A stretch of 19,267 nucleotides of DNA, taken from a virus. Taxonomy: Duplodnaviria > Heunggongvirae > Uroviricota > Caudoviricetes. The notes beneath the pieces were generated by a model. It worked only from the letters and a program-made list of their open reading frames with translations. It made no database searches and was not told the origin of the DNA. Positions 13,224-13,885 of the stretch are shown piece by piece; the stretch's first letter is position 1; each line of letters starts with the position of its first letter. A program made the translations under genes and the position numbers. Location of the stretch: IMG/VR virus record IMGVR_UViG_2721755725_000016, positions 1-19,267 of that record, one strand, 5' to 3'.

Positions 13224-13264
13224 GTGGCAGCCTCCTTGTACTGGGAGTTCTTCCCACCACCGGA

Positions 13265-13274
13265 GCTGCGAAAC
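13265..13274 (-). repeat. 10-mer GCTGCGAAAC (plus strand), copy 2, in the loop of an 8-bp GC stem
   Basis: Exact repeat of the 10-mer at 13472-13481. Flanking stem CCACCACC/GGTGGTGG at 13254-13261 and 13280-13287. Confidence 0.5.
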
Positions 13275-13425
13275 TCGCTGGTGGTGGACTGAACAGAGTT
13301 CGCAGTACCGGCGTACAAGGAAACCGGCCAGCCTTTCGGCTGCCCTGTCCAGCCCACCATAATTTTGCAAGCGACGCGGATTATAACCGCATCACTGAAA
13401 AAAGTGTGAGTCTGGCTAACGGCAC

Positions 13426-13447
13426 AAAAAAAGACGCTCGGCGCGTC
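13426..13447 (-). terminator. intrinsic-terminator-like hairpin inside the leader
   Basis: Minus-strand RNA GACGC-GCCGA-GCGUC followed by UUUUUUU (plus-strand A7 at 13426-13432). Confidence 0.45.
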
Positions 13448-13471
13448 ATGTGTCGCCTCGTACATTTCCGG

Positions 13472-13481
13472 GCTGCGAAAC
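13472..13481 (-). repeat. 10-mer GCTGCGAAAC (plus strand), copy 1, within hairpin CCGGG/CCCGG
   Basis: Hairpin 13468-13485. A partial complement (plus-strand gttcgcag) lies at 13298-13305. Confidence 0.5.
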
Positions 13482-13485
13482 CCGG

Positions 13486-13885
13486 CACCCGTTTTATGAG
13501 GTGCCTTATAACCATAAACCGTGTTGCCGCATAACGGCAAGCTCTTTTTTATGGACTCCGAAAACTCACTATTGGAAGCACCAGATGCACAATACATCGC
13601 GCTCATTTCGTTAACGTCGCGCGTGTGGACGAAGGTTTTTGTGGAGTCACTACGCGAGCAGAGAAAGCCATCTACGACCAGAAATTCTCTGGCGCAGCCG
13701 CCGACCTTCTCAACGCTAACACCATCGACCGTAATTTCTGACATAGTTAAGGCATCCGCTCCCACCACCAGAAAATGATAAACTTTGCTTGTATCTGCTG
13801 TATTAATGCCAGACTTTGCTGTCATATTGCTGGATTTTGGCGACATACCAGCCAGTGAAAATATCTTCTTCTGGACGGTTAGCAT
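13486..13885 (-). CDS. possible first ORF of the operon ([17 protein letters not shown]...), 3' end undefined
   Basis: GGAGG lies 7 nt upstream of the ATG at 13883-13885 and the N-terminal ~120 aa look protein-like. The frame stays open to 12818 through the structured leader, so the true end is uncertain; could be a pseudogene. Confidence 0.3.

Follow-up and report, generated by a model that had tools for sequence, protein, structure and literature searches.

The closest described relatives of the locus analysed here are the immunity region of the satellite P4, the immI region of phages P1 and P7, and the isrK locus of the Salmonella prophage Gifsy-1. According to PMC10111431, the CI RNA of P4 lies inside eta, where a promoter is constitutively active, Kil is a shortened form of Eta, and translation of the eta frame from an upstream promoter overrides immunity and prevents termination (there credited to Forti 1999). 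The timm site of P4 is placed inside kil, at X51522 8365-8209, by PMC3177188. In P1 and P7, immI has the order a1 b1, c4, a2 b2, icd, ant (RF01695, RF03163), its effector is the antirepressor Ant, and the c4 precursor is a substrate of RNase P (PMC2190699). The Gifsy-1 locus, isrK-orf45(STnc1160)-anrP, produces a 78-nt two-hairpin RNA with its own terminator, and read-through gives a downstream stable RNA complementary to IsrK. Short terminated and long read-through isoforms as well as Hfq binding have been reported for Salmonella IsrK, and the authors of that work liken IsrK to P4 seqA and STnc1160 to CI (PMC4825925); PMC3632133 likewise equates IsrK and C4 with seqA and CI of P4.

We consider it highly probable that the region described here, on the minus strand of the window (the whole stretch of 19,267 nucleotides that was analysed), is the antisense-RNA immunity module of a P4-like satellite prophage, inserted at thrW of an O111-type E. 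coli genome. The module is homologous to P4 seqA-CI-seqC and to P1/P7 a1b1-c4-a2b2, and its IsrK–C4 switch is real but ordinary, of a kind already well described.

Layout of the RNA module

Two Rfam covariance models recognise the leader upstream of the Icd-like gene over their full length. The isrK model (RF01394, gathering score 50) reaches 69.0 bits with E = 3.5e-13 and is matched at positions 1-77 of 77; the C4 model (RF01695, gathering score 45) reaches 81.1 bits with E = 7.4e-15 and is matched at positions 1-87 of 87. An initial annotation of this DNA had guessed at P4-style RNA immunity, which is borne out by the P4 seqA/CI region matching the same two models. It had also suspected a module of divergent type, and this part must be withdrawn, since P4's own scores of 60.8 (isrK) and 74.9 (C4) bits do not exceed those found here. 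The Rfam model c4-a1b1 (RF03163) gave no match in the window at its gathering score of 46.7; P4 itself reaches only 44.1 bits, so that RF03163 is a narrower model than isrK. The positions of all features are collected in Table 1.

Table 1. Features of the module and their positions in the window
Feature	Position	Strand	Sequence	Remarks
Long ORF, 355 aa	12818..13885	-		'ash family protein'; P4 eta equivalent
-35 element	13535..13540	-	TTGCCG	Predicted promoter inside the long ORF; P4 PLE equivalent
-10 element	13511..13516	-	TATGGT	6 nt upstream of the IsrK 5' end
Hairpin + T6	13524..13546	+		Hairpin 13524-13540, from terminator scan; minus strand is A-tract, -35 and spacer
IsrK/seqA	13427..13504	-		Hairpin 1, hairpin 2 with a1 loop, single-stranded b1, intrinsic terminator
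IsrK hairpin 1	13485-13504	-		
IsrK hairpin 2	13468-13485	-	CCGGG-UUUCGCAG-CCCGG	Loop presents a1
a1	13473..13479	-	UUCGCAG	Within first 10-mer copy; exact complement of a'
b1	13456..13463	-	GUACGAGG	Pairs with b', one G-U
Intrinsic terminator	13426..13447	-	GACGC-GCCGA-GCGUC + U7	From terminator scan; part of the isrK model
C4/CI RNA	13277..13364	-		Closing stem enclosing GAAA hairpin 1 and hairpin 2
C4 closing stem, 17 bp	13343-13359 with 13282-13298	-		
C4 hairpin 1	13329-13342	-	CAGCC-GAAA-GGCUG	
C4 hairpin 2	13307-13328	-		Loop carries b'
b' (anti-Shine-Dalgarno)	13313..13321	-	UCCUUGUAC	Exact complement of GUACAAGGA
a'	13299..13305	-	CUGCGAA	Single-stranded C4 junction; complements both UUCGCAG copies
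Target hairpin (part of seqC)	13254..13287	-	CCACCACC...GGUGGUGG	Loop holds GUUUCGCAGC
a2	13266-13272	-	UUCGCAG	Loop of the target hairpin
b2	13233-13241, within 13231..13241	-	GUACAAGGA	Overlaps Shine-Dalgarno AAGGAGG of the Icd-like gene
Icd-like gene, 64 aa	13029..13223	-		P4 kil homologue; regulated first cistron

A check of the sequence recovered every element listed in the initial annotation at its minus-strand coordinates. The repeated 10-mer on which it had dwelt occurs exactly twice in the 19.3-kb window, where 0.07 copies are expected and two of 200 shuffles reach two copies, and it holds the a1 and a2 targets. What had been read as a partial complement of the repeat, CUGCGAAC at 13298-13305(-), contains the a' element of C4, and the AAGGAGG at 13231-13237(-) does precede a 64-aa ORF, the Icd-like gene, which is of the small cell-division-inhibitor kind. 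Absent from that list were the 17-bp stem that closes C4, hairpin 2 of C4 with b', the b1 copy, IsrK hairpin 1 and the -35 and -10 elements.

Folded in isolation, C4 adopts a minimum free energy structure identical to the Rfam structure (-45.8 kcal/mol), with a tRNA-like closing stem that is followed by ...CCACCA. Its a' element forms duplexes of -13.5 and -12.6 kcal/mol with the two copies of UUCGCAG, and b' forms one of -15.4 kcal/mol with b1 and one of -18.6 kcal/mol with b2, the latter covering the Shine-Dalgarno sequence. The 5' strand of the target hairpin (13282-13287) also serves as 3' strand of the C4 closing stem, so that the two helices are mutually exclusive.

The whole 290-nt leader folds far better than its dinucleotide shuffles (z = -5.4), and its minimum free energy structure pairs a1/b1 with a'/b' in cis, like structure A of the Salmonella isrK-orf45 RNA (PMC4825925). 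This fold invites a reading modelled on Gifsy-1, according to which the read-through RNA folds on itself and is translationally silent, and the short RNA is an anti-antisense activator that frees the icd Shine-Dalgarno sequence in trans. The module would then serve to switch on a toxic or antirepressor cistron and not to repress replication genes. Such a short RNA would be yielded by the terminator that stands directly after a1/b1, and the same architecture is found upstream of ant-type genes in many lambdoid phages. The surroundings, however, are P4-like (integrase, AlpA-like regulator, primase-helicase remnant, Kil/Icd first) and not those of Gifsy-1, which is a lambdoid prophage in which no Icd-like or satellite replication genes follow and where the short RNA activates orf45-anrP translation in trans and thereby leads to AntQ-mediated toxicity. 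The two modes are compatible rather than mutually exclusive and sequence alone does not separate them; we regard operation in the Gifsy-1 mode as unlikely.

The P4 mode, which we prefer, rests on a close correspondence. The two RNA families, their order and their spacing agree between the loci, as does the promoter layout, and in each an intrinsic terminator hairpin follows seqA. As first cistron, both have an Icd-like Kil homologue (with NCBIfam NF033153, phage_ICD_like, the window gene scores 70.4 bits and P4 Kil 76.1 bits), whose Shine-Dalgarno sequence is the b2/seqC target, and both have a long ORF that begins ahead of the promoter and extends over the module. The island also carries an integrase of the P4 type and an AlpA-like gene. 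The recognition sequences differ: a' is UUCUCAC in P4 and CUGCGAA here, and b' is CCUGUGAA in P4 and CCUUGUAC here, and heteroimmunity is therefore expected. The window element also differs from P4 in being IS-ridden and without an intact primase. With immI of P1/P7, the window has in common the C4 fold, the a'/b' complement sites over the icd ribosome-binding site, the upstream duplicates a1/b1 and the Icd-like first cistron, whereas the effector here is the satellite replication region in place of Ant.

Promoter elements were located by anchoring 40 modules on IsrK hairpin 1. The position of the -35 element upstream of this hairpin is fixed in about 40 unique modules, P4 included, and the -10 element TATGGT aligns with TATAGT, TACAGT or TACACT in homologous modules; the arrangement TTGCCG-18 nt-TATGGT aligns with TTGCCT...TATAGT of P4. 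A strict sigma-70 consensus scan called no promoter at IsrK. From its sequence and position, we infer that the -35/-10 pair is likely to be active as a promoter. The plus-strand hairpin at 13524-13540, previously interpreted as a terminator, overlaps the conserved -35 element and spacer and is better explained as part of the promoter; no plus-strand gene ends at the hairpin and T-tract (13524-13546).

Co-variation of structures and recognition elements

Homologous loci were compared as a set of 70 unique modules, which was gathered by a pattern that fixes C4 hairpin 2 and consists of phylogenetically related sequences. The initial annotation had proposed covariation of the stems as a check, and the stems do covary, with compensatory changes. 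Across 51 sequences, 98.2% of the cells of the C4 structure are paired, with compensatory changes at 17 of the 27 pairs, the helix of hairpin 2 being uninformative in this respect because the search pattern fixes it. None of 500 shuffles matched this level of pairing, and slid controls gave 32-48%. For the IsrK structure (41 sequences), 92.7% of the cells are paired, with compensatory changes in 11 of 16 pairs. The IsrK terminator is conserved across modules with compensatory changes, and the target hairpin with its a2 loop is present in nearly all modules, again with compensatory changes in the stem.

The recognition elements vary, and they do so together. The 70 modules carry 38 different a'/b' combinations that co-vary with a1, a2, b1 and b2, and exact complements of a'/b' stand in the flanks of their own locus in 49-57 of the 70 cases, compared with at most 1.6% in cross-locus controls. 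Broken down by element, an upstream complement of a' (a1) occurs in 52/70 modules against 1.6% of the cross-locus controls, and a complement at +55 to +59 (a2) in 54/70 against 0.4%. If G-U pairs are allowed, b' finds an upstream complement (b1) in 62/70 modules (controls 2.9%). Its exact complement at +79 to +91 (b2) is present in 57/70 modules, or in 63/70 with G-U pairs, and in 0% of the controls. These data show immunity specificities assembled from a' and b' elements in mix-and-match fashion, each pair with targets to fit, and from them one could predict which satellites and phages fall into the same cross-immunity group.

RNA homology, covarying structures, the four complementarities with their co-variation, a conserved promoter and a conserved open frame were thus all computed for this locus. 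With two covariance models above their gathering scores and compensatory conservation in dozens of independent loci, the features lie far beyond chance.

The long open reading frame

The 355-aa ORF spans the promoter, IsrK, C4 and the targets, and then continues through icd in another frame and into the gene that follows (12818-13036). The start codon of the ORF overlaps the stop codon of an upstream DUF4222 remnant (ATGCTAA). Residues 124-232, encoded by nt 13190-13516, match Pfam PF10554 (Phage_ASH, described as a Bro-network N-terminal module) with 99.2 bits against a gathering score of 26 over profile positions 1-106 of 107, and at the level of single bases this profile covers exactly promoter, IsrK, C4 and targets. 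The ORF of P4 formerly called the 'cI protein', a part of eta, matches PF10554 too.

It might be argued that the ORF simply encodes an ordinary folded protein of the Ash family and that the RNA-like features are incidental. Besides the Pfam match, PGAP names WP_000958750.1 an ash family protein; there are 285 homologous proteins, some of them full length in other genera, including Klebsiella and Raoultella; and the frame is conserved, being open across the module in 52 of the 70 unique loci, whereas the other frames are open in 3 and in 0 (25 of 38, 3 and 0 when counted by specificity class). The pattern of variation tells against a protein. Column variability in the module is 0.40, 0.41 and 0.40 at the three codon positions, whereas the adjacent kil/icd coding sequence, with 0.56, 0.51 and 0.97, has a strongly relaxed third position; the lack of such relaxation in the module places the constraint on the sequence at the RNA level. 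Every invariant block of the 'protein' coincides with a nucleic-acid signal, namely promoter, IsrK hairpins, terminator, a C4 strand or the Shine-Dalgarno sequence, and coding does not explain the compensatory base-pair changes or the co-varying intermolecular complementarities. The P1-like phage D6 has isrK, C4, icd and ant with no ORF spanning the RNAs, and in another genome PGAP calls the identical DNA a pseudogene plus a separate Icd-like gene. AlphaFold2 gives pLDDT below 50 for residues 1-299, which is weak evidence given the shallow alignment. Taken as an account of the locus, a folded Ash protein with incidental RNA features appears very improbable.

The initial annotation had called the 355-aa ORF nominal and had judged its translation in this region an implausible peptide. 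The first judgement is half right: the constraint is indeed exerted at the RNA level, but the frame is kept open far more often than the other two. The second is mistaken in that HDAPSVFF is the most conserved block of the Phage_ASH family, a rank it owes to the terminator hairpin being read as codons. We also rejected the view that the Ash family is a purely spurious translation of an RNA locus, on account of the 52 of 70 loci with an open frame and of the role that the cited passages of PMC10111431 give to eta translation in P4. The PF10554 family tracks an RNA module that lies in an open frame rather than a protein domain that has been demonstrated. For the N-terminal 127 aa, which are longer than in P4 and unrelated, nucleotide and protein matches among the loci fetched came only from near-identical ones, and this part is variable and gapped among the protein homologues; there is no evidence in these alignments for a conserved domain.

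In P4, the long ORF has 198 aa and Kil is the in-frame C-terminal part of Eta. The start codon of icd/kil is in frame 1 in P4 and in 48/70 modules, but in frame 0 here, the spacer between Shine-Dalgarno sequence and ATG being 1 nt shorter. As a consequence, the window ORF does not end with Kil at about 198 aa but extends to 355 aa by way of icd and the gene after it. All nine unique cases with an out-of-frame icd have the long frame open across it. Within the sublineage concerned, from E. coli, Klebsiella, Raoultella and Pluralibacter, the shorter spacer sets the eta/Ash frame apart from Kil/Icd, and the frame passes through all of icd in an alternative phase and is fused to whichever gene comes next, with ORFs of 330-355 aa. 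It is conceivable, though we rate it as rather unlikely, that selection maintains this openness for ribosome transit across the RNA module and the Rho site. What is conserved would then be ribosome transit and no protein sequence, and Ash would denote a frame selected for being translated, not for its product. The same relative frame is, however, also open in 7 of 13 loci where openness is not needed, and the geometry of an 8-nt stop/start overlap accounts for the in-frame fusion to the gene behind icd, which together make the evidence for selection on openness across icd weak.

Proposed regulation and state of the island

The scheme proposed here extrapolates from work on P4, P1 and Gifsy-1 as regards the processing of the RNAs, termination by Rho, use of the long frame by ribosomes and activity in the present strain. 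A constitutive promoter inside the long ORF would start an untranslated transcript at about position 13504, the first 78 nt of which would be the IsrK/seqA element with a1 in a hairpin loop, b1 single-stranded and the intrinsic terminator at its end. By analogy with these systems, this terminator would end a short IsrK-like RNA, and read-through would go on into C4. The C4/CI RNA (13364-13277) might be cut from the read-through transcripts as a stable tRNA-like RNA. On nascent transcripts, its b' element (UCCUUGUAC) would pair with b2, the Shine-Dalgarno sequence of the Icd/Kil-like gene, and a' (CUGCGAA) with a2 in the hairpin loop at 13254-13287; both elements could also bind the upstream copies a1 and b1. 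Blocked translation of the first cistron would leave naked RNA exposed to Rho termination within that cistron, and the Icd-like gene, when untranslated, is probably the site of this termination, as judged from the position of timm in P4. The downstream replication genes would thereby be switched off, resulting in immunity or the maintenance of lysogeny. Transcripts that come from further upstream would be translated through the module in the eta/Ash frame, which might prevent RNA folding, pairing and termination and render them insensitive to immunity.

The island has an integrase that adjoins tRNA-Thr, a regulator of the AlpA family and an int-alpA RNA, and its primase-helicase gene is a pseudogene. 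It is decayed: one IS1203 copy parts the long ORF from its upstream operon and another interrupts the primase-helicase gene. With the upstream operon cut off and the primase-helicase gene reduced to a pseudogene, the output that the module should control is largely gone.

From this decay it could be concluded that the module is an inert relic that regulates nothing since the IS1203 insertions and is intact only because the island is recent. The IS1203 directly upstream (CDS 14020-15233), the one within the primase-helicase pseudogene and the lack of annotated psu, sid and delta late genes are in keeping with such a conclusion. We find it distinctly improbable, as the four complementarities, promoter, terminator, Icd-like ORF and long frame are all intact and the same 1.2 kb recurs with at least 99% identity in 327 E. 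coli records. A constitutive C4 could, moreover, still confer immunity to satellites with the same a'/b' and keep a toxic Icd-like gene silent.

For an immunity module of the P4 type, the biology adds little, as the switch, its relatives in P1/P7 and Gifsy-1 and the nesting of the RNAs in eta have all been described before. The value lies more in annotation. Hundreds of sequenced E. coli genomes contain this sequence, and pipelines call the region only 'ash family protein' and omit both RNAs. Their calls are also inconsistent, with identical DNA appearing as a 355-aa protein in one genome and as a pseudogene plus an Icd-like gene in another. In one study on the detection of satellites, the marker taken for the epsilon protein was the Ash profile, to which that protein is unrelated.

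An RNA immunity locus of the P4 type

An Rfam scan of the window at the gathering threshold identified an isrK RNA (RF01394, 69.0 bits) and a C4 antisense RNA (RF01695, 81.1 bits) on the minus strand, and the product of the 64-aa gene following them is Icd-like, matching NCBIfam NF033153 at 70.4 bits. Rfam recognizes the same pair in the immunity region of phage P4, isrK with 60.8 bits at 8615-8692(-) and C4 with 74.9 bits at 8420-8507(-), and P4 Kil is Icd-like as well (76.1 bits). The c4 and c4-a1b1 motifs were defined previously (PMC2864571), and a study of Gifsy-1 named IsrK a structural homologue of seqA and likened STnc1160 to CI (PMC4825925). 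The P1-like phage D6 combines isrK and C4 with icd and ant; by blastn, the module is also found in P1-like phages, in SfV (as its 'immunity region') and in APSE, and many lambdoid phages, Stx phages among them, have it ahead of ant-type genes. The locus is a P4-type RNA immunity system, a system already known. The initial annotation, which had proposed a P4-like module of a divergent type, was thus right in substance, as isrK, C4 and an Icd-like gene are present as in P4, but the supposed divergence is contradicted by scores above those of P4 itself for both RNAs.

Features of the leader and insertion sequences in the window
Feature	Position (nt)	Strand	Remarks
Predicted promoter -35, TTGCCG	13540-13535	-	conserved; 18-nt spacer to -10
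Predicted promoter -10, TATGGT	13516-13511	-	conserved; IsrK 5' end 6 nt further on
IsrK/seqA element	13504-13427	-	Rfam RF01394
IsrK hairpin 1	13504-13485	-	
IsrK hairpin 2, CCGGG-UUUCGCAG-CCCGG	13468-13485	-	a1 in loop
a1, UUCGCAG (upstream target)	13479-13473	-	loop of IsrK hairpin 2
b1, GUACGAGG (upstream target)	13463-13456	-	single-stranded
Terminator, GACGC-GCCGA-GCGUC then U7	13426-13447	-	
Variable linker, 62 nt	between IsrK terminator and C4	-	
C4/CI RNA	13364-13277	-	Rfam RF01695; 17-bp closing stem
GAAA hairpin, CAGCC-GAAA-GGCUG	13329-13342	-	within C4
b', UCCUUGUAC (C4 recognition element)	13321-13313	-	loop of C4 hairpin 2; anti-Shine-Dalgarno
a', CUGCGAA (C4 recognition element)	13305-13299	-	C4 junction
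CUGCGAAC	13298-13305	-	partial complement of 10-mer; contains a'
Target hairpin, stem CCACCACC/GGUGGUGG	13287-13254	-	second GUUUCGCAGC in loop
a2 (target before icd)	13272-13266	-	loop of target hairpin
b2, GUACAAGGA (target before icd)	13241-13233	-	overlaps Shine-Dalgarno sequence
64-aa Icd-like ORF	13029-13223	-	AAGGAGG ahead; ATG at 13223
Hairpin + T6	13524-13546	+	
IS1203	3116-4329	+	ALIL frameshift pseudoknot (Rfam)
IS1203	~8982-10195	-	ALIL frameshift pseudoknot (Rfam)
IS1203	14020-15233	-	ALIL frameshift pseudoknot (Rfam)

All hairpins listed in the initial annotation, both copies of its 10-mer, the complement and the AAGGAGG with its 64-aa ORF were recovered in place. The repeat, found exactly twice in the window (0.07 copies expected), contains a1 and a2, and its partial complement corresponds to a'. 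The initial annotation had overlooked the promoter, b1, the C4 closing stem and the loop complementary to the Shine-Dalgarno sequence. The 290-nt leader folds with a z-score of -5.4, and the computed b' duplex over the Shine-Dalgarno sequence amounts to -18.6 kcal/mol. Nucleotides 13287-13282 belong both to the C4 closing stem, as its 3' strand, and to the a2 hairpin, as its 5' strand, so that the two folds are mutually exclusive. This sharing is conserved in the modules compared, where the three strands covary (e.g., GCUAUCGCC/GGCGAUAGC in P4), and the exclusion may constitute a processing-dependent or co-transcriptional switch.

An IMG/VR pattern scan for the C4 hairpin-2 core provided 70 unique genuine modules for comparison. 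The stems covary, a check that had been proposed with the initial annotation: pairing amounts to 98.2% in C4, where 17/27 pairs show compensatory changes (0/500 shuffles reach the observed level; slid controls, 32-48%), and to 92.7% in IsrK, where 11/16 pairs do. An exact complement of a' occurs in the module's own flank upstream in 52/70 and downstream in 54/70 cases, and one of b' downstream in 57/70 and upstream in 49/70 (63/70 and 62/70, respectively, with G-U allowed); exact-complement cross-locus controls reach at most 1.6%, and modules without an exact match mostly display one-base register shifts. Judged from sequence, this own-flank complementarity is what one would expect of an antisense specificity code. 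Among the 70 modules, 17 a' types and 19 b' types form 38 combinations; CTGCGAA (a'), for instance, is found with CCTTGTAC, CCTTGATC or CCTTGAGC (b') in the IMG/VR loci L004-L122. At the level of these motifs, the comparison shows that a and b elements have been reshuffled between lineages, and such mixing and matching suggests recombination between two specificity determinants.

A translatable frame across the RNA module

The 355-aa ORF spanning the module had been dismissed as nominal. This cannot be upheld, as in 52/70 modules the long frame is free of stops over a stretch reaching at least from -180 to +100 relative to the C4 core. The other two frames are open in 3 and 0 modules, and counting by specificity class gives 25/38 versus 3 and 0; by this comparison the openness of the long frame is not accidental. 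PGAP labels the ORF 'ash family protein', and Pfam Phage_ASH matches residues 124-232 (nt 13190-13516), a span that coincides exactly with promoter, IsrK, C4 and targets; the profile also matches the obsolete P4 'cI protein' ORF, over CI. Sequence constraint within the module is not protein-like: column entropy at codon positions 1, 2 and 3 is 0.40, 0.41 and 0.40 across 13 sequences, and 0.56, 0.51 and 0.97 in the adjacent kil/icd coding sequence of the same set. Across 14 homologues, the invariant 'protein' blocks correspond to nucleic-acid signals translated codon by codon, with KK.L and VYGY representing the A-tract, -35 and -10 elements, APxKxGAG IsrK hairpins 1 and 2, DAPSVFF the terminator, IMVG the C4 5' strand, and KEAA the Shine-Dalgarno sequence. 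AlphaFold2 assigns pLDDT <50 to residues 1-299, which is weak evidence given the shallow alignment. The region is therefore of dual use, an RNA module within a frame kept translatable.

In P4, the same frame is one 198-aa ORF that ends with Kil and corresponds to eta, and PMC10111431, citing Forti 1999, states that eta translation from an upstream promoter prevents termination. The upstream DUF4222 gene and the 355-aa ORF overlap at their stop and start codons (ATGCTAA), an arrangement compatible with translational coupling. Because D6 has no plus-strand ORF spanning the RNAs (2495-2988) and 18/70 modules have no open long frame, nesting is a lineage feature rather than a property of the RNA module; on present sampling it characterizes the P4-like modules and many lambdoid ones of the ant type.

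In 48/70 modules the long frame and the first cistron share their frame, like Eta and Kil; in 15/70 (the window and 14 others) icd/kil is out of frame with the eta/Ash ORF and lies in frame 0. This is due to a Shine-Dalgarno-ATG spacer that is 1 nt shorter (GGAGGCTGCCACATG at window 13221-13241(-) versus ...CCACCATG in the otherwise similar locus L073, itself compared with L085, L010, L042, L004 and L121). The long frame consequently traverses icd in an alternative frame and, owing to an 8-nt stop/start overlap, continues into the following gene to reach 355 aa. Equivalent fused frames extend up to ~520 codons in the L004 class, and in Klebsiella, Raoultella and Pluralibacter there are homologues of 330-355 aa organized likewise. 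All 9 unique out-of-frame cases keep the alternative frame open; since it is likewise open in 7/13 loci that do not need it, these sequences argue only weakly for selection on its openness.

The long ORF ends in 72 codons (MIKTYDV..., 12818-13036(-)) that have their own GGAGG and an ATG overlapping the icd stop, display protein-like divergence between E. coli and Klebsiella, and are the sole part with pLDDT >50. They are probably a separate real gene, which PGAP merges into 'ash' or leaves unannotated.

Proposed mode of control

Sequence comparison here establishes the RNA homology, structures, complementarities, and conservation of promoter elements, terminator and frame. By analogy with P4, P1 and Gifsy-1, the internal promoter would generate an untranslated leader, the IsrK terminator would halt some transcripts, and read-through RNA would be processed to stable C4/CI RNA; c4 processing is carried out by RNase P (PMC2190699). 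C4 would then pair with a2/b2, and also a1/b1, on nascent RNA, blocking icd/kil translation and permitting Rho termination inside the untranslated cistron; the Rho-dependent terminator of P4, timm, lies at 8365-8209, inside kil (PMC3177188). Transcripts from upstream, translated through the module, would escape. As an alternative or additional mode, the short RNA could act by Gifsy-1-like trans-activation. This is a live option because the minimum free energy fold of the whole leader (13215-13504(-)) pairs a1/b1 in cis with a'/b', instead of forming IsrK hairpin 2 and C4, and thereby resembles the translationally silent 'structure A' of Salmonella isrK-orf45 RNA.

Annotation and genomic setting

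Since the system is already known, the interest of the locus is low; what it yields besides is chiefly useful for annotation, namely the inconsistency of 'ash' labels, an Ash profile that tracks the RNA module, and the out-of-frame icd variant. Identical DNA (window 12818-13885(-); L001 6234-6949; L002 7116-8183; L123 11668-12735) carries two different PGAP annotations. Strains 14614 and TW05614 are given a single 'ash family protein' of 355 aa (WP_000958750.1), and strain UTME-6 an Icd-like protein of its own next to a pseudogene labelled 'ash family protein, missing C-terminus'. The isrK and C4 RNAs are unannotated in all these PGAP records. PF10554 served as epsilon marker ('Ash, also called epsilon') in a study surveying P4-like satellites (PMC8628076). 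In P4 (7888-8175(-) and 8168-8584(-)), however, PF25738 is the profile that epsilon fits, and PF10554 hits the cI/eta ORF where it covers the CI RNA, so the marker detects the immunity module and not the derepression protein.

E. coli O111:H8 TW05614 matches the window at 99.9% identity, and the element is a P4-like island adjoining tRNA-Thr; the 1.2-kb module region is present in 1,095/5,426 complete E. coli genomes. One IS1203, 40 bp from the long ORF on its upstream side, interrupts the DUF4222 gene, and the primase-helicase gene is a pseudogene holding another, which is missing from the otherwise identical TW05614. The module is intact, and the functions due for its control are partly lost.

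Elsewhere in the window, an int-alpA RNA (RF02996, 46.7 bits) lies at 17925-17992(-) between the integrase and DUF6387 genes. Beyond the truncated primase, 4332-7389(-) carries CP4-type cargo including CbtA toxin fragments, a frameshifted YeeU antitoxin, DUF987, a JAB/RadC-like protein, an antirestriction protein and DUF932, and a DNA cytosine methyltransferase and an HNH endonuclease are encoded at 907-2615.
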